Source: Squalus acanthias (Eukaryota). From it: a DNA stretch of 64,000 nt. The DNA is taken from contig CM059432.1 in assembly GCA_030390025.1 (NCBI GenBank), forward strand, positions 47,308,001 to 47,372,000, in the 5' to 3' direction. The notes under the pieces were generated by a model, which saw only the letters and a program-made list of their open reading frames with translations, was not told the origin of the DNA and did not search any database. Made by a program: the position numbers and the translations under genes. This document shows, in pieces, positions 2,821 to 44,349 of the stretch (position 1 is its first letter; the number at the start of each line of letters is the position of its first letter).

Positions 2821-4857
2821 ATCCTCTAGGCTAACAAGGGAAATTAGGGATAGCATAAGATCCAAGGAGAGGGCATATAAATTGGCCAGAAAAAGCGGTA
2901 ACCCTGAGGATTGGGAGCAGTTTAGGATTCAACAAAGGAGGACAAAGGGATTAATTAAGAAGGGGAAAATAGAATATGAAAGTAAGCTTGCAGGGAACAT
3001 AAAAACTGACTGTAAGAGCTTTTATAGATATGTGAAGAGAAAAAGATTAGTGAAATCAAGTGTAGGTCCCTTGCAGTCAGAAGCGGCGGAAGTTATAATG
3101 GGGAACAAAGAAATGGCAGCCCAATTAAATGCATATTTTGGTTCTGTCTTCACAAAGGAGAACACAAATAACCTTCCAGAGATGTTGGAGAACATACGGT
3201 CTGATGAAAGGGAGGAACTGACAGAAATCAGTATTTGCAGGGAAATGGTGTTAGGGAAATTGACGGGATTGAAGGCCGATAAATCCCCAGGGCCTGATAA
3301 TCTACATCCTAGGGTACTTAAGGAAGTGGCCCTAGAAATAGTAGATGCATTGCTGATCATCTTCCAACATTCGATGGAATCTGGAACTGTACCCATGGAT
3401 TGGAGGGTAGCTAATGTTACCCCACTATTCAAAAAGGGTGGTAGAGAGAAAGCGGGGAATTAGGTAAGCCTGACATCGGTAGTGGGGAAAATGCTAGAGT
3501 CCATTATAAAGGATGTAATAGCTGAGCACTTGAAAAACAGTGACAGGATCGGACAAATTCAACATGGATTTACAAAAGGTAAATCGTGCTTGACTAATCT
3601 ACTGGAATTTTTTGAGGATGTAACTGGGAAAATAGATAAGGGAGAACCAGTAGATGTGGTGTATTTGGACTTTCAAAAGGCTTTCGATAAGGTCCCGCAT
3701 AAGAGATTAGCGTGTAAATTTAAGGCACATGGGATTGGGGGCAAGGTATTGACTTGGATAGAGAACTGGTTGGCGGACAGAAAGCAGAGAGTAGGAATTA
3801 ATGGGACTTTTTCCGAGTGGCAAGCTGTGACTAGTGGGGTACCGCAGGGATCGGTCCTTGGACCCCAGCTATTCACAATATACATTAATGATCTAGATAA
3901 GGGAACTAAATGTAATATCTCCAAGTTTGCAGATGACACAAAGCTGGGTGGGAGTGTGTGCTGTGAGGAGGATACCGAGAAACTCCAGGATGATTTGGAC
4001 AGGTTGGGTGAGTGGGCAGAAGCGTGGCAGATGCAATATAACGTGGATAAATGCGAGGTTATCCACTTTGGTGTCAAAAACAGAAAGGCAGACTATTATC
4101 TGAATGGCAATAGATTGGGAGAAGGGGAAGTGCAACGAGACCTGGGTGTCCTTGTGCACCAATCGCTGAAGGTAAGCATGCAGGTGCAGCAGGCGGTGAA
4201 GAAGGCAAATGGTATGTTGGCCTTCATAGCGAAAGGGTTTGAGTATAGGAACAGGGATGTCCTGCTGCAGTTGTACAGGGCCTTGGTGAGACCACACCTT
4301 GAGTATTGTGTGCAGTTTTGGTCGCCTTATCTGAGGAAGGATGTTCTTGCCATGGAGGGAGTTCAGCGAAGATTCACAAGGCTGATACCTGGGATGGCAG
4401 GAATGACATATGAGGAGAGATTGGGTCGATTGGGCTTATACTCGCTGGAGTATAGAAGAATGAGAGGGGATCTCATCGAAACATATAAAATTCTGACAGG
4501 TCTGGACAAACTAGATGCAGGAAGAATGTTCCCGATGGTCGGAGAGTCCAGAACCAGGGGTCACAATCTAAGGATAAGGGGTAAGCCATTTAGGACAGAA
4601 ATGAGGAAGAATTTCTTCACCCAGAGAGTGGTGAACCTGTGGAATTCTCTACCACAGAAGGTAGTTGAGGCCAAGTCAATAAATATATTCAAGAATGAGT
4701 TAGATATATTTCTTAAAGCTAAAGGTATCAAGGGATATGGGGAGAAGGCAGGTACAGGGTACTGAGTTTGGATGATCAGCCATGATCTCATCGAATGGCG
4801 GAGCAGGCTCGAGGGGCCGAATGGCCTACTCCTGCTCCTATCTTCTATGTTTCTATG
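2821..4857 (+). mobile_element. 5'-truncated CR1 of a different subfamily, nested in opposite orientation inside the CR1 above
   Basis: 427-aa RT ORF 3482-4765 (QGSVLGP, FADD) and TTCTATGT-repeat tail. Removing it rejoins the host as ttgctagctt|tactctcata. Confidence 0.93.
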
Positions 4858-5285: not shown

Positions 5286-5484
5286 TGATGTGGAGATGCC
5301 GGTGTTGGACTGGGGTGGACAAATGTGAGAAGTCGCACAACACCAGGTTATAGTCCAACAGCTTTATTTGAAATCACAAGCTTTCGGAGCGCTGCTCCTT
5401 CACCTGACGAAGGAGCAGCGCTCCGAAAGCTTGTGATTTCAAATAAAGCTGTTGGACTTTAACCTGGTGTTGTGCGACTTCTCA
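5286..5484. mobile_element. Short palindromic non-autonomous element (Penelope-related) with hammerhead ribozyme
   Basis: 80-bp inverted repeat arms 5322-5401 and 5409-5488 (one mismatch), 7-nt loop. Flanked by ~13-bp direct repeats cattagttaatcc (5273-5285) and cattaattaatcc (5485-5497). Confidence 0.85.
5400..5436 (+). ncRNA. Minimal type I hammerhead ribozyme motif
   Basis: TCAC-CTGACGA-A-GGAGC-AGC-GCTCC-GAAA-GCTT-GTGA: both core boxes present, stem II GGAGC/GCTCC, palindromic stem III AAGCTT, stem I TCAC/GTGA. Confidence 0.75.
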
Positions 5485-7390
5485 CATTAATTAATCCAGC
5501 CTCATTACACATTACTAGATCTAAAATACTCTGCTCCCTGGTTGGTTCCACAACATATTGTTCCAAGAAACCATCCCATATACACTCTAAGAACTCTTCC
5601 TCAAGTCTACCTTTGCCAATTTGCTTTGTCCAATCAATATGAAGATTAAAATCTCCCATGATTATAGCCGTACCTTTCTTACAAGCCTGTAGTATTTCTT
5701 GATTTATACTCTGTCCTACAGTGGCTACTGTTTGCAGCCTGTCGACCACTCCCACCAGTGACTTCTTACTCTTATTATTTCTTATCTCCACCCAAACTGA
5801 TTCTACGTCTTGATCTTCTAAGCAAATATCATTTCTCACTACTGCACTGATCTCATCCCTTATTAACAGAGCTACACCACCTCCTTTTCCTTTCTGCCTA
5901 TCCTTACGAAATGGCAAATACCCCTGAATATTCAGTTCCCAGCTTTGGTCACCTTGCAACCACGTCTCTGTAATGGCAATCAGATCATACCCATTTATTT
6001 CTATTCATGCTGTCAACTTATCTACCTTGTTATGAATGCTGCGTGCGTTCAGATATAGAGCTTTTAATTTTGTCTTACCATTTTTCCCTACTCTGACCCT
6101 GCTTTCTGATGCACTCTTGTGTATACGCTCTGTCCCTTCCTGTCTCACTCTAGTGATCATTACCCCATCGCTACACTGCACTTTTGCCTTCTCATTTTTC
6201 TTTGACTTTTTAAATTTCCGCTCAGCGGACCTCTCCCCCCCCCACTATTTAGTTTAAAGCCCTATCTACAGCCCTAGTTATTCGATTCGCCAGGACACTG
6301 GTCCCAGCCTGGTTCGAATGAAGCCCTTCCCGATGTAACAGTTCCCTCTTACCCCAGTACTGGTGCCAGTGCCCCAAGAATCGAAACCCATTCCTCCCAC
6401 ACCAATCTTTGGGCCACTCGTTCATCTCTCTGATTTTATTTACCCTATGCCAATTTGCATGTGGCTCAGGTAGTAATCCAGAGATTATTACCTTTGTGGT
6501 TCTGCTTTTTAATTTAGCCCCTAGCTGCTCATACTCACTCAGCAGAACCTCTTTCTTTGTCCTACCTATGTCATTGGTACCTACATGGACCACGACAACT
6601 GGATCTTTCCCCTCCCACTCTAAGTTCCTCTCCAGCCCAGAGAAGATGTCCTTTACATTGGCACCGGGCAGGCAACACAGCCTTCGGGACTCACACTGTT
6701 GGCTGCAGAGAACAGTGTCTATCCCCCTAACTATACTGTCCCCTACCACTACCACATTTCTTTTTGCTCCCCCCACTTGAATGGCTCCCTGTACCACAGT
6801 GCTGTGGTCAGTTTGCTCATCCTCACTGCAGTCCCTGCTCTCACCCACACAGAGAGTAAGAACCTCGTAACTGTTGGGCAAGAGCAAGGCTGAGGCCCCT
6901 CCACCACTACCTCCTGGGTCCCCATACCTGCCTCGCTCGTAGTCACACCCACCGGTCCCTGACCACGGACCAAATTTGAATTAATTAATCTAAGGGGTGT
7001 GACTACCTCCTGGCACACAGCGTCCAGGTAACTCTCCCCCTCCCTGATGTGTCGCAGTGTTTGAAGCTCAGACTCCAGCTCATCAACACGGAGCCGAAGT
7101 TCCTCGAGCAACCAACACTTACTGCAAATGTGGTCGCCGTGGACCTCAATGGTGTCCACCAGCTCCCACATGTTGCAGCAGTAACACATCGCCTGCCCTG
7201 CCATCTCTAACGTATTTAATTAAGTGTTTAAGTTTTGAACGTTTAGTTTTTAATCCCGGCTCTTAATTTAAATCAATGCCCAAGAAAAAGAGAAATACTG
7301 ACCAACCAATCGCTTTCCTGTGACGTCGCACTTTGAATCTTTCTACTTCTTACCCTCCCAGGTCGGTTGGCGCTGCTCCGGGCTCGCTTG

Positions 7391-7539
7391 TTCAGCCCGC
7401 TCCCTCCCGCCATTTTTCCTCACAGCCCACTGACTCCCGGCATTTTTCCTCACAGCCCGCTCCCTCCCGCCGTTTTTCCTCACAGCCCGCTCCCTCCCGG
7501 CATTTTTCCTCACAGCCCACTCCCTCCCGGCATTTTTTT
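7391..7539. repeat. 30-bp minisatellite (~5 units) at the CR1 5' end
   Basis: Unit CATTTTTCCTCACAGCCCGCTCCCTCCCGG with minor variants. Confidence 0.95.
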
Positions 7540-19099: not shown

Positions 19100-19728
19100 T
19101 CCTCTCCATCACCAAGACCATCTACTTTCACCCCCGTAACATCACCCAACCCCACCCCTGGCTCACCCCAACTGCTGCGGAATCCCTCATACATGCTTTT
19201 GTTACTCCAGACTCGACTATTTCAATGCTCTCCTGACTGGCCTCCCGCCTTCCACCCTCAGTAAATTTCAGCTCATCCAAAACTCTAACTTGCACCAAGT
19301 ACCATTCACCCATCACCTCTGTGCTCGCTAACCTACATTGGCTCCCAGACTAGCAATACATCGAATTTAAAATTCTCATTCTTGTGTTCAAATTCCTCCA
19401 TGGCTTTTCCCCTCCCTATCTCTGTAACCTCCTACAACCCTCTGAGAACTCCGCGTTCATCCAATTCTGGCCTCCCTGATTGCCTTTGCCCTACCATTGG
19501 CGCGTGCCTTCAGCTGTCTAGGCCCTAAACTCCGAAATTCCGTCTTTAAACCTCTCCACCTTTCTCTCCTCCTTTAGGGTGCTCCTTAAATATACTTCTG
19601 ACCAAGCTTTTGGTTACCTAGCCTAATATGTGGCTCAGTGTCAAAGTTTCTCTGATAACGCTCCTATGAAGTGTCTTGGGATGTTTTACTACGTTTAAAG
19701 GTGCTATACAAATGCAAGTTGTTGTTGT
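19100..19728 (+). mobile_element. L2 3' fragment inserted in a SINE remnant
   Basis: Homologous to 40160-40828; (GTT)n tail. Confidence 0.8.
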
Positions 19729-33009: not shown

Positions 33010-34035
33010 TAGAATCATAGAATGGTTAGAGCACAGAAGGAGGCCATTCGGCCCACCGAGCCCGTGCCGGCTCTCTGCAAGAGCACTTCAGCTAGTCCCA
33101 CTCCCCCGCCCTTTCCCCATAGCCCTGAAATTGTTTTCCATTCCCTTTTGAAAACCACGATTGAGTCTGCCTCCACCACCCTTTCAAGCAGTGCATTCCA
33201 GATCTTAACCAATCGCTGAGTAAAAAAGTTTTTCCTTATGTTGCCTTTGGTTCTTTTGCCAATCACCTTAAATCTGTGTCCTCTGGTTCTCAACCCTTTC
33301 ACCAATGGGAACAGTTTCTCATTGTCTAGACCCCTCATGATTTTGAACACCTCTATCAAATCTCCTCTCAACCTTCTCTGCTCTAAGGAGAACAACCCCA
33401 GCTTCTCTAGTCTATCCACATAACTGAAGTCCCTCATCCCTGGAATCATTCTCGTAATTTTTTTTAACCCTCTCTAAGGCCATCACATCCTTCCTAAAGT
33501 GCGGTGCCCAGAATTGGACACAATACTCCAGTTGAGGCCTGAACCAGTGTTTTATAAAGGTTCATCATAACTTCCTTGCTTTTGTACGCTATGCCTCTAT
33601 TTATGAAGCCCAGTATCCTGTCTGCTTTTTTAACTGGTTTCTCAACCTGCCCTGCCACCTTTAACTATTTGTACACATATACCCCCAGGTCTCTCTGTTC
33701 ATGCACCCCTCTTTAGGATTGTACCATTTAATTTACATTGCCTCTCCTCGTTCTTCCTACCAAAATGTATCACTTCACACTTTTCCGTGTTAAATTTCAT
33801 CTGCCACGTGTTCACCCATTTCACCAGTCTGACTATGTCTTCTTGAAGTCTATCACTATCCTCTTCACTGTTCACTATACTTCCAACTTTTGTGTCATCT
33901 ACAAATTTTGAAATTGTGCCCTGTACTCCCAAGTCCAAGTCATTAATAGATATCAAGAAAAGCAGTGGTCCTAGTACCGACCCCTGGGGAACACCACTGT
34001 GTACCTTCCTCCAGTCTGAAAATCAACTGTTCACC
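33010..34035 (-). mobile_element. CR1 3' fragment
   Basis: RT ORFs 33015-33449 and 33699-33956. Confidence 0.85.
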
Positions 34036-34134
34036 AAATTAGTCAAATTTTTTGTCTTATACTTCTGTGAAGCGCCTTGGGACGTTTTACTGCGTTAAAG
34101 GCACTATATAGATACAAGTTGTTGTTGTTGTTGT

Positions 34135-37100
34135 TTGGTGAAGACAGATGCAAAGTATTCATTTAGTACCTCAGCTATGTCCTCTGCCTCCATGTGTAGA
34201 TCTCATTTTTGGACCCTAATCAGCCCCACCCCTTCTCTTACTACCCATTTATTATTTATATGCCTATAGAAGACTTTTGAATTACCTTTTATTGAAGGGA
34301 TAATTACAAGTCCTAGCCCATCTCGGGCTACCCCAGATCAGGCGTATTCCCCAGACGTTCCCCTTCAACTAAAGTTAGAGATAGCCGAATCCTATAAGAC
34401 GCTTAATTGGGTCTAAAGGTCCAGGCTCTCTCTCCCTAAAGGAAAGAAACGACTTGAAGATATTACCATCCTCCAGAAAGCACTTTTAATAAGTTTAACT
34501 AGACTGTAACCTTCCGGATATTATGAGGGTCCAGAAAACCCCCCCAGAATTCTGCAACTCCTCCCAAAAGAGTGTACATAGATTTGAGTTCGCGAGTTTG
34601 ATACAGAAGTACTCTGTGAGACAATTCTAAAAATATATAGATTTATTAAGGAACTGACATTTAGTTAACAGCTGGTGAGTCAATCGCAACTTTAACAGTT
34701 CAAAATACAAATAGCTTACAATTCTTATTCTCAGAGATCCTTATTCTCAAATCTTAATTTCGTTACATTTTTACATTTCTACTTATTCTTAATCCAGAAT
34801 ATCCACCAAAATCAAGTAAAAGTACCGTTTGATCCCCGAGACTCAAAGAGTTAAAAACTTACAGAGCTTGCCTCTGAAGCTGAGAATCGCCTGCCCGTTC
34901 CAATGACTTGTTTTCCCATTTGAAAATCCCATATCTTATACTCTTTTTGCAGTGGTATCTCCTTTGAAGTTTTCTGCTGATGTAAGCTAATTATCTCTAG
35001 TCAGTCTTTCTGTTGACTTCTTTCTATTCTTACTGTTAGTTCAGCTGCTAACTCTCAGAATCCTGTCTGCTGTATAGGTGTTTCATAACTTATCTTATAA
35101 AATGGTTATTACAGATTTATCTCTGATGCCATTCTTACGAAGGTTTTCAATTCAATTCTTAATATCCCCTTAACTGGTTATAAGCAGACGTTATGTCTAC
35201 TAACTGTTCCATTTTCAATACAAATACAATGTGATTGCTTGGTGTCATCTATTGATATTATATCTTCAAAGTGTTCTGTAGGTATCATATTTACAATATG
35301 TAAATCAAAACCACTTCAGCCAGGGTGTTCCATGCATTTCTTAGCTACTTCAATTGGTTGTATATATAATTGTGTTTCCTGTTTCATTTGATGTTACTTT
35401 TACAAAGGCACATGGTTTTTTAATGTTCTGTGTTTCTGTTCGAAGTGTTATTTTTTAACACTTTAAACTGGGTATAGCATTGTGTTGGTTCCAAACTGCA
35501 GACTCCTTGGAAGCAAGCCTTTGCTTCTTCAATAGGGCCATTGTCTCAGTGTCAATAACCATTTCCCATTTCAAAAGCTTGTATGGTGTTTACAGCTTTG
35601 TGTTAACAAGCTCATCTTATCTCAGAAGCCTGTATTTACAGCTTTGTGTCATTGAGGCTTTTAGATTTTTAAACCCAGTTTGTCATATTTTAATAATGTC
35701 AGAATTCTGTTCATAGGATGGTGTATTTTTCTGAAATATGGCTATTCCTTTACATTATGTTAGCTGCCAATCTATTCTCATAATCTCTCTCTTTGCCCCT
35801 CTCATTTTCTTTTTCACTTCCCCTCTGAACTTTCTATATTCAGCCTGATTATTGCTTGTATTCTCAACATGACATCTGTCATACACGCCCTTTTTCTGCT
35901 TCATCTTACTCTCTATCTCCTTCATCATCCAGGGAGCTCTGGCTTTTGTTTCCCTACCTTTCCCCCTCATGGGAATGTACCTCGACTGTAACTGAACCAT
36001 TGATTACAGCTTTGCCTGCCAATCTTTGATTCCAATTTACCCGGGCCAGATCCGTTCTCAACTCACTGAAATTGGCCTTCCTCCAATTAAATATTTCTAC
36101 TCTAGATTGCTCCCTGTCCTTTTCCACAGCTAATCTAAACCTTATTAAAGTATGATCACTGTTCCCTAAGTGTTCACCTACTGACACTTGCTCCACTTGA
36201 CTCACCTCATTCCCCAGAACCAGATCCAGCAATGTTTCTTTCCTTGTTGGGCTGGAAAGGTACTGATCTGGAAAGTTCTCCTGAACACACTTCAGAAATT
36301 CTTCCCCCTCTCTGCCCTTTACACTATTACTATCCCAGTCTATATTAGGATAATTGAAGTCCCCCATTATTACTACTCTATAGTGCTTGCACCTCTCTGT
36401 AATTTCCCTGCAAATTTGCTCCTCTATATCTTTCCCACTAGTTGGTGGCCTATAGAATACACCTAGTAGTGTAATGGCACCTCTATTATTTCTTAACTCT
36501 AACCAACTGGATTCTGTTCTTGACCCCCTCCAGGACATCCTCTCTCTCCCCAACACTAACATTCTCCTTAACCAATACTGCCACCCCACCTCCTTTCTTT
36601 CCTTCCCTCTCTTTCCTGAACACCTTATATCCAGAATATTTAAAACCCAATTCTTCCATTTTTTGAGCCAGGTCTCCGTTATCACCACAAAATCATATTT
36701 CCATGTGGCTATTTGCGCCTGCAGCTCACCAACCTTATTTACCACACTTTGTGCGTTTACACACATGCACTGTAAACCTGTCTTAGACCTTCTTATATTC
36801 TCTTAGTCTGACCTCACCTAATAACTTACTATTTCTTACTCTAGTGCTATATGTCTCTCCCAATCCTTTGTGCACTTGTTTCTCCTTTCTATTGCTACAT
36901 CCTGGTGCCCATCTCCCTACCAAATTAGTTTAACCCCTCCCCAACAGCACTAGCAAACCCCACCGCAGGGACATTGGTTCCGGCTCTGTTGAGGTGCAAC
37001 CCGTCTGGCCTGTACAGGTCCCACCTCCCCCAGAACCGGTCCCAATGTCCCAGGAATCTGAAGCCCTTCCTCCTGCACCATCTCTCCAGCCACACATTCA

Positions 37101-37165
37101 TCTTCTCTATCCTTCTATTTCTATACTCACTAGCTTGTGGCACAGGGAGTAATCCAAAGATTACA
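34135..37165 (-). mobile_element. CR1 5'/central fragment (esterase C-terminus and APE), interrupted by the solo LTR
   Basis: ORFs 36925-37170 (DGLHLN) and 35954-36766 (ITETWL, IMGDFN, LDLVL). Confidence 0.85.
34293..35754 (-). mobile_element. 1462-bp solo LTR (retroviral-like, possibly foamy-like)
   Basis: TG...CA termini and perfect 4-bp TSD TTAT (34289-34292 and 35755-35758); the host CR1 rejoins cleanly. On the minus strand: TATAAG at 34940, GTAAGT donor at 34862, AATAAA at 34647-34642. Confidence 0.8.
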
Positions 37166-37254
37166 ACCAAAGCGCTTCATTGGCTGTAAAGCACTTTGGG
37201 ACGTCCGATGGTTGTGAAAGGCGCTATATAAATGCAAGTCTTTCTTTCTTTCAT

Positions 37255-37775
37255 TCCACCATTCATAAACTTGAGCTCATTCAAAACTCTGCTGCCCATA
37301 TCCTAACTTGCACCAAATCCCATTCACCCATCACTAGTGCTTGCTGACCTACATTGGCTCCCTGTCCGGCAACACCTCAATTTTAAAATTCTTATCCTTG
37401 TTTTCAAATCCCTCAATGGCGTCACCCATCCCTATCTCTGCAACCTCCTCCAGTCCTACGACCCTCCGCGATCTCTGCAGTCCTCCAATTCTGGCCTCTT
37501 GTGCATCCCCTATTTTAATCACTCCACCATTAGTAGCTAGCTTTCAGCTGCCTAGGCTCTAAACTCTGGAATTCCTTCCTTAAAACTCTCTGCCCCTCTC
37601 TCCTCCTTTAAGATGCTCCTTAAAAGCTATCTCTTTGACCAAGCTTTTGGTCATGTCCTAATATCTCATGTGGCTTGGTGTCAAATTCTGTTTGATAACG
37701 CTCCTGCGAAGTGCCTTGGGATGTTTTACTATGTTAAAGGTGCTATATAAATGCACGTTGTTGTTCCTGTTGTTG
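37255..37775 (+). mobile_element. L2 3' fragment
   Basis: LADLHWLPV motif; (GTT)n tail. Confidence 0.8.
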
Positions 37776-37989: not shown

Positions 37990-40828
37990 GCCCCTCCAGA
38001 ATGTCGTTCACTTGCGAACAAGGTCCTTGCCATCCATGAGCTTATCGTGGATACTGCATTGATATCATGGCCCTGACAGAAACTTGGTTGAGGGGTGATG
38101 ACACCTTACCCTTAAATGAAGCCTCCCCACCTGGCTATACCTTCCACCACTTTCCCCGCTCCGACCGCCCTGGTGGCGGTGTGGCTCTCATTACCGAATC
38201 ACACCTTGGTCTGTCCCGCTATTCCTCTGGCAGTTTCTTCTCCTTTGAGCATCTCACCTTATTTCACCTCATTTAAAATTCTTGTTCTCTACCGCCCACC
38301 CAAGTACCATAAAATTTTTATTACTGAGATATCTTCACTGTTCTCCTCCCTCAGCCTCTGCACCGAACGACTTCTCATCCTCAGTGATTTCAACCTCTGA
38401 GCTCACTAGCCTCCTATCCTCCCTTAATCTCTCCCTCCATGTAAACTCCCCAACCCATATTCATGGCCATCCCCTCGACCTTGCCATCTCTCGTGGCCTC
38501 GCTACTCCCATCGTGTCAATTGCAGATAAGGCCATCTCTGACCATTTCCTCGTATCGCTCTCCACCCACATCCTCCTTCCACCCACCCCACCCCAACCCT
38601 ACTTCCTTCGGTGTCCGCCCCTGGAGAAAACTCCCTTACAACTGCACTTATGAAATCCCAACTGTCCAGCCTCTGGCCCTCCATTCACCATGACATTTCT
38701 GTAGCTACCGATCTGCTCAACTACACCATCACCACCATCTTTGATGCCCTAGTCCCTAATAAGTCAATTACCCTCTCACCCTAGCCATTCCTCCTGGTAC
38801 GGCTCTCATATTCGCTCCCTTAAGTCCAAGACTCAAACAGATATGGCAAACAACTGGTTTAGCCATTCACTGCCAGACCTGGCTGGACCACATAAAGCAC
38901 TATTGGGCCCTGCTCTCGTCTGCCAAAATTGCTCACTATTCCAGAATCATTCTGGAATGCAAAGATAAACCCCGGTTCCTATTCTCTACTGCTAACTGTC
39001 TTCTTAAACCCCTCTCCCCTGTCTCCTTCTCCTCCACCCTCACCTCCGATAACAAATGTAAGGAGCTCATGGACTTCTTTGTCTCCAAGATTGAGATTAT
39101 CCGTTCAGCTGCCTCTGTCACTTCCCTTCCTTTCCCTAGCCCACTGGGCCAAATTTCCTCTAAGGTTCCCCCCTGCCCTAGCCCTGAACTCACATCTTTC
39201 TCCAGTTTCACTCCAATCTCCCCTCATGACCTCTCTGCGCTCATCTTGTCTATGAGACTCACCTCCTGCTCCCTCGACACTATTCCCACCAAACTGCTGA
39301 CCACCCAACTTCCTTTTCTGGCTCCCATGTTAGCCGATATTGTTAATGGTTCTCGCGCCTCAGGTACTGTCCCGCTCTCCCTCAAATCTGCCGTCATCAC
39401 CCCTCTCCTCAAAAAACCAAACCTTGATCCGTCTGTCCTTGCAAACTACCACCCCATCTCCAACCTTCTTTCCTCTCCAAAGTTCTTGAACGTGTTGTTG
39501 CCTCCCAAATCCGTGCCCATCTTTCTTGCAATTCCATGTTTAAATCCCTCCAATCAGGTTTCCGCCCTTGCTACAGTACCAAAACGGCTCTCATCAAAGT
39601 CACAAAGGATATCCTTTGTGACTGTGACAAAGGTAAACTATCCCTCCTCATCCTTCTTGACTTGTCTGCAGCCTTTGACACAATTGACCACTCCATCCTT
39701 CTCCAACGCCTCACCACCGTCATCCAGCTAGGTGGGACTGCACTCGCCTGGTTCCATTCTTATCTATCCAATTGTAACCAGAGAATCACCTGCAACAGCT
39801 TCTCTTCCCGCTCCCGCATCGTTACCTCTGGTGTCCCCCAAGGATCTATCCTTGGCCCCCTCCTATTTCTCATCTACATATTGCCCCTTGGTGACATCAT
39901 CCAAAAACACAGCGTCAGTTTCCACATGTACGCTGATGACACCCAGCTCTACCTCACTACTTCTCTCGACCCCTCCACGGTGTCTAAATTGTCAGACTGC
40001 TTGTCCGACATACAGTTCTGGATGAGCAAAAACGTTCTCCAATTAAATATTGGGAAAACTGAAGCCATCGGTCACCGCCACAAACTCCGTTCCCTAGCCA
40101 CTGACTCCATCCGTCTCCCTAACATCTGTCTGAGGCTGAACCACATATCCGCAGCATAACAAAGATCACCTATTTCCACCTCCGTAACATCGCCCGTCTC
40201 CGCCCTTGCCTCAGCTCATCCGCTGCTGAAACCCTCATCCATGCCTTTGTTACCTCTAGACTTGACTATACCAACACACTCCTGGCTGGCCTCCCACATT
40301 CCACCCTACGTAAACTTGGTCATCCAAAACTCGGCTGCCTGTGTCCTAACTCACACCAAGTCCCGTTCGCCCATCACCCCTATGCTCGCTGACCTACATT
40401 GGCTCCCGGTTGAGCAGCGCCTCGATTTCTAAATTCTCATCAGTTTTCAAATCCCTCCATGGCCTCGCCCCTTCCTATTTCTGTATTCTCCTTCAGCCCC
40501 ACAACCCCCGAGATATCTGCACTCCTCTAATTCTGCCCTCGAGGATCCCTGATTATAATCGCTCAACCTTTGGTGGCTATGCCTTCGGTTGCCTAGGTCC
40601 TAAGCTCTGGAATTCCCTGCCTAAACCTGTCCGCCTTGCTACCTCTCTTTCCTCCTTCAAGACGCTCCTTAAAACTTACCTCTTTGACCAAGCTTTTGGT
40701 CACCTGCCCTAATTTATCCTTATGTGGATCGGTGTCAAATTTGTTGTCTTAAAATACTCCTGTGCAGCGCCTTGGGACGTTTTACTACGTTAAAGGTGCT
40801 ATATAAATACAAGTTGCTGTTGTTGTTA
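37990..40828 (+). mobile_element. L2-type LINE, near-complete ORF2 (frameshifted)
   Basis: APE (ALTETWL, SDFN, LDL, SDH), RT (LDLSAAFD, GVPQGSILGP, YADD), and (GTT)n tail. Confidence 0.9.
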
Positions 40829-41599
40829 GTAGATTCCTTGCTTACCTTTGCATTTTGCCTTTTCATCATTATTTTTGTTCTTGCAGTTTTTCCTTTCTTG
40901 TACTTTCCTTTGTTTGCCAGACTTCATGAACATTAAATGTCCAATAAAGTTCAGAAAATTAATGTATGCATGACAGAAGGTATATTTAAGTCATTTTGAC
41001 CTTAATTGCATTATGCCATAGGAACTCTTAGCACATTCAAATTATTCATTCCCTCAGCATTTTATTCAGAAGCATTAATAGTTTATTTTAATTTTCTATT
41101 AATTTTTAAATTATATGAACATACTATGCATTCATCTGCTAGTATCCCACAGCATAATTTTAAGGCCATAGAGAATAGATAACCAGAATTCATTAGATGA
41201 TAATTTTCAGTAAGGAAGGCAATGATGCAATAATGTTAGATTGGCTTACTTGGTAGTGCTTTTGCTTCTGACTCAAAGTTATGAGTTTAAATCTCACATC
41301 AGTATTTGATCTTATAATCTCTAGTGCAATTGCATTGTTTAAGATACTATCCTTCAAATAAGTTGGTGATGAGGATTGACCATCTGAAGGAAGGCAGAGT
41401 TCTCTCAATGTCCTCACCAACATTAATCCCTCAATTCAATACCAAAAGAAATGATGAATACATTGCTGATGTAGGATTGCCGTCATGTTTGCTCATACTG
41501 CCCCCTAAAAGCAATTCATTGTGCGAAGCACTTAAAGACATTTTGACAAAAGGATTAGGCGCTGCATTAATGTAATTATTTCTGATTCTTTAATAAACT

Positions 41600-44141
41600 G
41601 TAAGAGCGAATCTCAGTCAGATTACTGCCACCATATAAATCTCAAAATAGACAGTGATTGTATAATATAAACATGCTGGAGATAATTTACTATATAATAA
41701 ATTACATATTCCAAATGCAAGAGACATATTTATTTACACTCAGTCTATTTCCATGCTGATTGAAGGGAGCTATCTTTGAGCCACTCTTTCCAGAACTTTA
41801 GTTATTGAATCCGTTGAGCATTAACCTTTCATAAAGGATGCTTGGTATTTGTACTGGACTAACATTCTGGTTGAAATTTTAAAACCTGCATTAAAGAGGG
41901 TATGGATCTGTAGTTGGGACAGAGCCCTTTTCTGGTTTGGCATTTTCTAACTTCATAGCAACAGGGAACCATCCGAACTCCCTCAATACAGTGGTCAAGG
42001 GATACTGAAGTGTGACAGAACCTCAAACTCCTACCATTTCCCATCTCACCAATTAGACAGCTCAGTTACAATTAATATCCAAATGTAAATGTCAGCTGGG
42101 CTACAAATACAGCTCTTCTAGGCCATGGCACAACACATCAATACACTGCAACACCAGACTGCCAGACAACTAACACTCCCTATCTAAATAGTGTGTTGTG
42201 TGCATTGAATCACAACACACATATGTAACTAGTTATCATAAATATGTGATGTCAAATAGCCTTGACACTACGCTATTACCTTTTAAACAGTCATTTGCAG
42301 AAAAGTATAAAATAGTCACATTTTCTTTAATAATGATTCACTCAAACTAATTGGTGGTAAACTATTGTTCAATATCTCAACCCATTGCCACAGCAATGTC
42401 AAATTTATAGTTTTATTTTACCCAGGATGTTATTTCTGACAATTAGGTTTACAAGAAAAATAGTCACATGATAATTTTAGGCAGTCACTGATTCAATGTA
42501 TCTCAGCATGATGTGCATAAATAAAAAACATTTCAGACGACATGAACGCCACTTACAAGATACAAATGTGAATTTAACTGCAAGTCAATTATTTTAACAT
42601 TCTGCAGATATTGTAATTATGTAGCACAAATAGTATTTTCAGAATATGACTGAAAAACTAGTGAATGGTTTGTAGAAAGATGTCAATGCATGTGATTAAT
42701 TTGAAGCTAAAGGTCCAATGAACTACAAATGGTATCACATAAATTACAATATTAAGAAAAAAGTGCATAACTATAAACATAACACAAGTATACCATCAGA
42801 CCCAGAAGTGCCAGTAAATATTAAGTGACATACAGAAAGTAAATTACTTTATTTATACAAGTTCCCCAGCTTTTAAAGAACATACTCAATAATTAGAATT
42901 GCAACTTTTGCCCTCTCATTATTCAATATAAAAGCCATAATGTACTTTCTAAACTGCCTCAGATGTCTTTTATTGAAATATACTTGCTTAAATATAACTA
43001 CTTATTTTCAAGAAACTGCAGTGTACAGCAAAATGTCTTTTATATTTTATAATATTTTACACAGTACTAGCTGTATATATTTCAAAATCCTAAAATGTTT
43101 TCACCCGATGCTGTGGTGAATTTGGAAACAGGTATTTAACTGGGTATTTGGATTTTACATCAACAAGGATGCATAAAATGTTGTGGAAGATATATTTAAT
43201 TGAAAAGGTAAATACAAAAGATGACTTATTGACATGCTCAAGAACATTCCTTCCATATTTTGATGGTTTTTTTTAAATTCATGTTATAGTTTTGTAGTTA
43301 TCAGCTACTTATAAACTGCCAAAGTTCAAAGTTCACTACACCCCTTTATACAACAAAAAGTATGTTATAGAAAGGTATGTTTGTGTCATTCTATGAAGTA
43401 CACTCTATCTACAAGTTACTCTGGATTTATCATTTAGCGTTAAAAAAAAATCTTTATTCATCTATTTTTTAAAAAATGAACATTTTTGTGGTGCTAGAAT
43501 ATGAAAGCCCTAACCATTCAATTATTTAGCAGCAGCACCTACTTCATGTAAAAGTATTTGGCCCCAATCTAAAAATTCAAAGAAAATTGTACATTTCAAA
43601 CAGAACATTATAAAACAAACATTAAAAAATAAAATATCTGCAGAATAACTTCAAAATATGTTATACAATTAAAAAAAACTGCAATGCTGGAAATCTGAAA
43701 TAAAACCAGAAAGTACTGGAAATACACAGGAAGGCCCTCAGCATCTATAAAAAATAGACAGGTTTAACCTTTCATCAGAATGGAAAACTGAAAGGAAACA
43801 ATTTACAGGTTTGGGGAAAAAAGGAGAAAGGGCAGAAGAAGTAAGAGATACTCCAATCCTAGATAGTTAGTAAGTTGAATGATCTGTCTTTTCATTGGCT
43901 TACAAGATATAACAAATACATACAGAACAATTTAACCTGGTCAAATTTCATTATATTGTTTTATCAAAGTTATTCAAAATGTTAACATGGAAATGAATTT
44001 AAATTTTTAGAACATTTTTAACTAAAACAATACATCATAAAAATAAGTATAGTGGCTAATACTGGCAGGACTGAAGACTTCCGTACTCCAGTGAATATAT
44101 TTGTAGGTCACGCACTGAAGTCAGATCACACATTCAGATAC
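41600..44141 (-). other. Probable 3'UTR / 3' flank of copine copy B
   Basis: AT-rich, repeat-poor sequence after the stop codon, with several minus-strand AATAAA hexamers (e.g. ~43453, ~42848, ~42412). The true end is unknown. Confidence 0.5.
43679..43790 (-). mobile_element. Decayed Penelope 3'-terminal fragment within the putative 3'UTR
   Basis: The reverse complement matches 59570-59690 (CTGATGAA...gatgctg...tttccag...tatttcagatttccagcat). Confidence 0.65.
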
Positions 44142-44249
44142 TTAGGGGCTTGGCTCATTAGGAGGACGGAGTTTGCGTGTGTTGAAGTAGCACACCACCT
44201 GCTGAGGTAATTCAGCCAGTACACTTTGTGCAAGAACTTCTTTGGGTGC
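44142..44249 (-). CDS. CPNE3: Copine copy B, terminal coding exon
   Basis: taaacag|[38 protein letters not shown] followed by TAA; matches the copine-3 C-terminus. Confidence 0.95.
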
Positions 44250-44349
44250 CTGTTTAATGAGATGAGTGTTATTAGTTTGAAAAACAACAATCATGTGGAC
44301 AAGAAACAGCAAGTGACTGACATCACACAGCAAATTTTCAGTCTACACG

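Follow-up and report, generated by a model that had tools for sequence, protein, structure and literature searches.

The long terminal repeats (LTRs) of foamy-like endogenous retroviruses (FLERVs) have been described at 1498 nt in AciFLERV, 1634 nt in AliFLERV and 960/974 nt in NviFLERV-1, with a target-site duplication (TSD) of 4 nt (PMC5512871), and those of teleost foamy-like elements extend over 665-1707 aligned positions (PMC5210030, Table 2). The marks of foamy-like ERVs given in the latter source are a primer-binding site (PBS) for tRNA-Lys (or Asn/Thr) and a GGGTG border at which the polypurine tract (PPT) meets the LTR. Sharks are already among the published hosts of foamy-like ERVs (PMC10699275, PMC5512871). 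With regard to RNA processing, a layout with the splice donor ahead of the poly(A) signal is termed unique to foamy viruses, the donors of orthoretroviruses being located downstream of the poly(A) site, and in prototype foamy virus (PFV) the 5' poly(A) signal is silenced by U1 snRNP on the donor upstream of it (PMC3694450).

Here, an insert of 1462 bp within a CR1-type LINE was analysed in a 64-kb stretch of DNA, referred to below as the window. A single copy of this kind changes little, because solo LTRs are common and foamy-like ERVs are known in fishes, amphibians and sharks. Its value lies in giving clean, full-length access to an LTR family that is very abundant and shared by several species, the boundaries of the copy being proven by the host CR1.

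Extent and ends of the insert

The host element is a decayed CR1-type LINE on the minus strand (33015-37176), of which Pfam recognises pieces of the endonuclease and of the reverse transcriptase (RT), namely Exo_endo_phos_2 at 35954-36802 and RVT_1 at 33699-34022, one on either side of the insert. The insert interrupts the linker of CR1 ORF2 and has the same orientation as the CR1. It occupies 34293-35754 on the minus strand, with a 5' start of TGTAAAGGAATAGCC, as had been described, and a 3' end of CA. The TG...CA ends form an imperfect terminal inverted repeat of ~11 nt, and they are flanked on the minus strand by the duplication ATAA, the 5' copy at 35755-35758 and the 3' copy at 34289-34292, which is a perfect 4-bp TSD at this one insertion. 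The preliminary description had given a span of 34289-35758; the element is indeed there, but that span takes in both TSD copies, and the element proper is 4 bp shorter at each end.

When the insert and one TSD copy were deleted in silico, ORF2 of the host CR1 was open in frame, and the restored ORF2 aligned without gaps to two further CR1 copies of the window (2972-3175 and 2826-2650). Moreover, an exact skip of 1466 nt, joining 34288 to 35755, was present in CR1-family contigs of all four public runs compared (12, 10, 3 and 3 contigs). The frame and alignment of the CR1, together with the exact skip in the contigs, settle the ends of the insert independently of its motifs, and confirm the earlier claim of a 1462-bp TG...CA element with a perfect 4-bp TSD inside a CR1. 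The chance that a 4-bp repeat, TG and CA would coincide at ends fixed in this manner is ~1.6e-5.

A second copy of the insert was not found within the window, either by BLAST or by a search for its ends, and no junction with an internal region, PBS or PPT was observed among the 24 of 836 loose contig ends listed. The lack of a paired copy or internal region in the window and among those ends would suit an alternative in which the insert is not an LTR but a non-autonomous element in its complete form, for example a TG...CA derivative of a DNA transposon or a TRIM-like element. Neither long inverted repeats nor terminal direct repeats were found inside the insert, though, from which it follows that the insert is a single LTR-sized unit rather than a small complete element. 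Furthermore, its polarised U3/R/U5-type composition and conservation, described below, fit an LTR, so that a DNA transposon derivative or TRIM-like element is very improbable. We therefore regard the insert, with high confidence, as a solo LTR, whatever its class.

The formation of solo LTRs by LTR-LTR recombination has been documented (PMC12067270). By the same route, integrase would have inserted a provirus of an abundant long-LTR ERV family into the existing CR1, duplicating 4 bp, and recombination between the two LTRs would then have deleted gag-pol-env, so that a single LTR remained flanked by the original TSDs.

Several other features of the window were recorded. At 34042-34132, where the host CR1 is short of ~540 nt of ORF2 in comparison with other copies, there is a fragment of 91 bp that has an (AAC)n tail, and related fragments are located at 40734-40827, 37680-37774 and 19647-19728. 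Another CR1 contains a near-perfect palindrome of 167 bp (5322-5488), 96% self-complementary, the arms of which resemble Penelope-like element tails with a hammerhead-type core, arranged tail to tail; Rfam returned only sub-threshold hairpin matches for the palindrome. A piece of CR1 ORF1 at 6249-6980 encodes a GDSL-esterase domain (PF13472), as is expected in ORF1 of some CR1 elements, and a minisatellite with a period of 30 bp and 4.8 copies lies at 7393-7537. The window is otherwise filled with LINEs, except for 3.3 kb at 41000-44300 that is AT-rich (29-34% GC) and nearly devoid of window-internal repeats, possibly old intronic or UTR sequence.

Abundance and conservation of the LTR family

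A run index listed 20 holders of the LTR, which come from 8 studies, bear seven organism labels and have word shares of 0.29-0.59. The coverage figures given here take in four of these 20 runs, from four studies and three organism labels (A, B, A and G). Their contigs represent members of the family and do not imply that this very insertion is present in the samples; as contigs, they are also uninformative on expression, transcription start or splicing. In each of the four runs all 30 bins of the LTR were covered end to end, with 8513, 2521, 787 and 506 contigs aligned, CR1 flanks counted in. Coverage of all bins was reached even in runs of 120-255 million letters, which points to a high-copy repeat. 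In three runs the depth of the conserved half was of about the same order as that of the CR1 flanks, a comparison of summed depth and not of copy number. The end-to-end coverage in all four runs thus supports the earlier reading of a solo LTR from a multicopy family, and the possibility raised in the preliminary description that the element is unique and without further copies is ruled out by the same contigs.

Coverage is distributed unevenly along the LTR. The median over 34320-35027 was 13, 9.5, 3.4 and 3.5 times higher than over 35028-35676 in the four runs, so that the sequence of the U3-like part varies between family members over the latter interval, as judged from contig coverage; in the terminal bin at the 5' end of the LTR, coverage went up again in all four runs. 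Greater conservation of R and U5 than of U3 is typical of LTRs (PMC3601003), and the better coverage of the half from TATA to 3' end than of the U3-like half is the pattern expected of an LTR. Loose contig ends were seen at 35003 in three runs, with 4-24 contigs, and further ones at 34945. These two sets of ends hint at two or more LTR subfamilies, with R/U5 in common and with divergence from the promoter upstream.

By word shares, the insert differs by ~1.7% from the best holder, a figure that may be inflated, since gaps in coverage reduce the share as well. Converted with the two shark rates that PMC10699275 and PMC4422223 assume, this difference would correspond to 34-77 Myr, an age too rough for use for the same reason. 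Exact-motif scans gave 3 and 5 matches in viral contigs, 0 and 12 in metagenomes and 1 in prokaryote genomes; all 21 loci were rejected as chance, as the match extended over at most 26 nt and only at the pattern.

Two alternatives to a foamy-like origin may be considered here. The first is a solo LTR, formed in the same way, of a lokiretrovirus-like ERV or a related one with an F-type envelope, a sister lineage of retroviruses resembling BHIKHARI. Most BHIKHARI insertions are solo LTRs (119 of 196 for Bik-1 and 337 of 393 for Bik-2), and the 1,000-bp filter applied in that work lets partly intact solo LTRs through, which implies long LTRs (PMC12067270); the RNase H of lokiretroviruses also forms one group with that of foamy viruses (PMC7947760). 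On the other hand, a published lokiretrovirus screen has no positives for one chondrichthyan order among the rows listed, and the literature searched, so far as its text was available, yielded no statement of lokiretrovirus TSD or LTR length. This origin is considered unlikely. The second alternative, equally unlikely in our estimation, is that the solo LTR comes from a Gypsy-type retrotransposon (without envelope) in which the LTR is unusually long. Intracellular spread would suit a very high copy number, Gypsy is the commonest class among zebrafish LTR elements (830 of 968 RT-bearing elements; PMC8672886), and animal Gypsy LTRs share the retroviral motifs TG...CA, AATAAA and a loose TATA (PMC3601003). 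The mean LTR lengths of six animal Gypsy training sets in the last source are nevertheless 174-695 nt, under half of 1462, and no statement that fixes the TSD length of vertebrate Gypsy elements was found in the literature searched.

Predicted parts and signals of the LTR

On the basis of composition, coverage and motifs, the LTR is predicted to consist of a U3-like part of ~845 nt (34910-35754), an R-like part of ~290 nt and a U5-like part of ~325 nt (34293-34616, its end being a GC-richer stretch), all on the minus strand and with predicted start and cleavage sites. The U3-like part had been described as ~0.85 kb and AT-rich; the length stands at ~845 nt, and the composition is better called A-rich, with 41.5% A on the minus strand. 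Its CpG observed/expected ratio is 0.13, versus 0.78 and 0.58 downstream. Within it, a two-copy direct repeat extends over 35586-35649. As had been reported, 15 nt are repeated exactly (35589-35603 and 35635-35649), and the extended copies agree at 17 of 18 positions. An exact 15-bp direct repeat arose by chance in 0.25% of 2000 Markov simulations, and the repeat may be of enhancer type.

Protein coding in the U3-like part was also considered. Mammalian foamy viruses possess an accessory ORF that runs into U3. Here, Pfam found no family in the six frames of the U3-like part. For one minus frame none of 93 candidates reached E <= 0.01, among candidate lengths of 138-440 only; a second minus frame had no match among 1.84 billion representatives, and a third was covered by the Pfam search only. 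The best stop-poor stretch was equalled in 60% of 2000 simulations. A U3 ORF was accordingly rejected as unsupported, the stretch being at chance level and without protein matches, although blank protein searches carry little weight in themselves, protein sets being poor in repeats. In AciFLERV, too, the last ORF stops short of its LTR (PMC5512871).

The likeliest TATA box is TATAAG at 34935-34940 on the minus strand. Three additional TATAA-type motifs are situated upstream (35099, 35182 and 35262). In related copies the predicted site reads TATAAATA, as judged by eye from the loose ends at 34945 (17 contigs in run X5 and one in X17), and on this account the TATA box at 34940 is favoured over the three upstream candidates. 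A candidate splice donor, GTAAGT, follows at 34857-34862, 78 nt after the TATA box and at a predicted ~+48. Its exon side is TCT, which matches the usual consensus MAG at none of three positions. The sole AATAAA of the minus strand is located at 34642-34647, with a CA ~25 nt downstream; it lies 293 nt after the TATA box, at a predicted ~+263, and 354 nt from the end of the LTR. The TATA box at 34940, GTAAGT at 34862 and AATAAA at 34647 are consequently present where they had been noted, and the earlier distance of ~260 nt from predicted start to poly(A) signal holds. The claim of a donor ~45 nt past the start is sustained in respect of the motif, at ~+48 from a start site that is itself predicted, and weakened by the poor exon side.

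It should be noted that the three motifs differ in how well their surroundings are covered. Among the 12 conserved-half bins, the one with the donor had the lowest coverage in three runs and the next to lowest in the fourth; the bin with the poly(A) signal ranked 9-12 of 12, contig depth being a rough guide. From this contrast, the donor is perhaps not conserved: the region may vary across the family, and divergence of this copy itself could cause the same dip. Furthermore, the layout of TATA box, donor and poly(A) signal appeared on either strand in 6.0% of 5000 simulated sequences under a loose test and in 2.5% under a strict one, and at such frequencies it constitutes modest evidence. The R-like region gave an RNA structure z of -1.08. 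In the window no Rfam match reached gathering score, the matches near the element having E >= 0.6 only. A hairpin with a 6-bp stem was observed at 34314-34330, within ~20 nt of the LTR's 3' end and beside the position that the PBS would have in a provirus.

While the family was active, the 5' LTR copy would have driven transcription from the TATA box at 34940, and the 3' copy would have terminated the transcript after the signal at 34647. As both copies would carry this signal inside R, the 5' one would have to be silenced. The present copy is probably inert, with a residual promoter or poly(A) effect at most.

The order of donor and signal also bears on the alternative of a class I (gamma/epsilon-like) or snakehead-retrovirus-like (SnRV-like) ERV as the source of the solo LTR, which we judge about as improbable as, or slightly less probable than, either alternative considered above. 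A U5-like part of ~325 nt is long for class I and counts against it. The candidate donor is 5' of the poly(A) signal, in contrast to orthoretroviral donors, which are 3' of the poly(A) site (PMC3694450), and LTRs of class I are shorter, usually ~0.5-0.6 kb, at a training-set mean of 521 nt for gamma elements (class III, 504 nt; PMC3601003) and ~565 nt for the hagfish epsilon LTR. In favour of class I, 4-nt TSDs are common to gammaretroviruses and foamy viruses (PMC5210030, section 3.4), and epsilon-like and SnRV-like ERVs have been described in the elephant shark (PMC4422223).

Class of the LTR and comparison with described systems

The single most likely class for the LTR family is the foamy-like (FLERV) branch, an assignment that we hold as plausible, at slightly less than an even chance, with membership unproven. 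With respect to the earlier proposal of a foamy-like ERV, the length, the 4-bp TSD and the proportions of the LTR fit, and none of the features on which the proposal relied is diagnostic. The length of 1462 bp falls within the range of fish FLERV LTRs, a feature that is not exclusive to them, and TSDs of 4-6 bp are found in most LTR retrotransposons. The distance of 354 nt from poly(A) signal to LTR end compares with ~320, 450 and 490 nt, estimated by eye, in three FLERV LTRs. The start TGTnnnGGAAT, previously put forward as a foamy mark, is present here and absent from all four published foamy-like LTR starts (AciFLERV, AliFLERV, NviFLERV-1 and ERV-Spuma.0-Sca, the last being one base off); it is therefore not a family marker. 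The donor-like motif at a PFV-type position may be regarded as the best argument for a foamy-like origin.

A more far-reaching version, and a doubtful one of about the low standing of the rival classes, is that the family represents an undescribed foamy-like lineage of sharks or rays, of LINE-like abundance in several species, with an R-internal donor that controls polyadenylation by way of U1 snRNP, in the manner of mammalian foamy viruses. If this were true, a mechanism of poly(A) choice so far demonstrated in primate foamy virus alone would date to the base of the jawed vertebrates, and thousands of natural copies would be available on which to test U1-type poly(A) control. More generally, should the family turn out to be foamy-like with a donor in use, the age of foamy-type poly(A) control could be examined on it by natural comparison. 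A description of the LTR family was not found by a literature search by topic, which by its nature cannot prove absence.

Among described systems, BHIKHARI and the lokiretroviruses (PMC12067270, PMC7947760) are similar to the family in being high-copy fish ERVs whose surviving copies are chiefly solo LTRs, apparently of some length. Cartilaginous fishes, the probable host group here, have foamy-like and other ERVs already described, namely ERV-Spuma.0-Sca in the small-spotted catshark and CmiFLERV/CmiERV in the elephant shark. The LTR of ERV-Spuma.0-Sca is 866 nt in length (PMC10699275), and its first 400 nt are unlike the insert by eye; three short motifs of the insert had no match in the supplements of papers on cartilaginous-fish ERVs, which for the Sca LTR comprise those first 400 nt. 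The LTR of PFV is alike in having a donor-like motif early in R, before the poly(A) signal. In PFV, R measures 193 nt and has its signal at +168 to +173, compared with a predicted ~290 nt and +263 in the insert. In further contrast to PFV, the region of the candidate donor is poorly covered in relatives of the insert, and its U3 is without a detected ORF remnant. With the FLERVs of fishes and amphibians the comparison is one of features, and their LTRs start with TGTC, unlike the insert. They agree with it in an LTR of ~1-1.7 kb, in TG...CA ends and in a 4-nt TSD and, by eye, in a TATA box in the middle of the LTR and in long R-like and U5-like parts, the former AT-rich.
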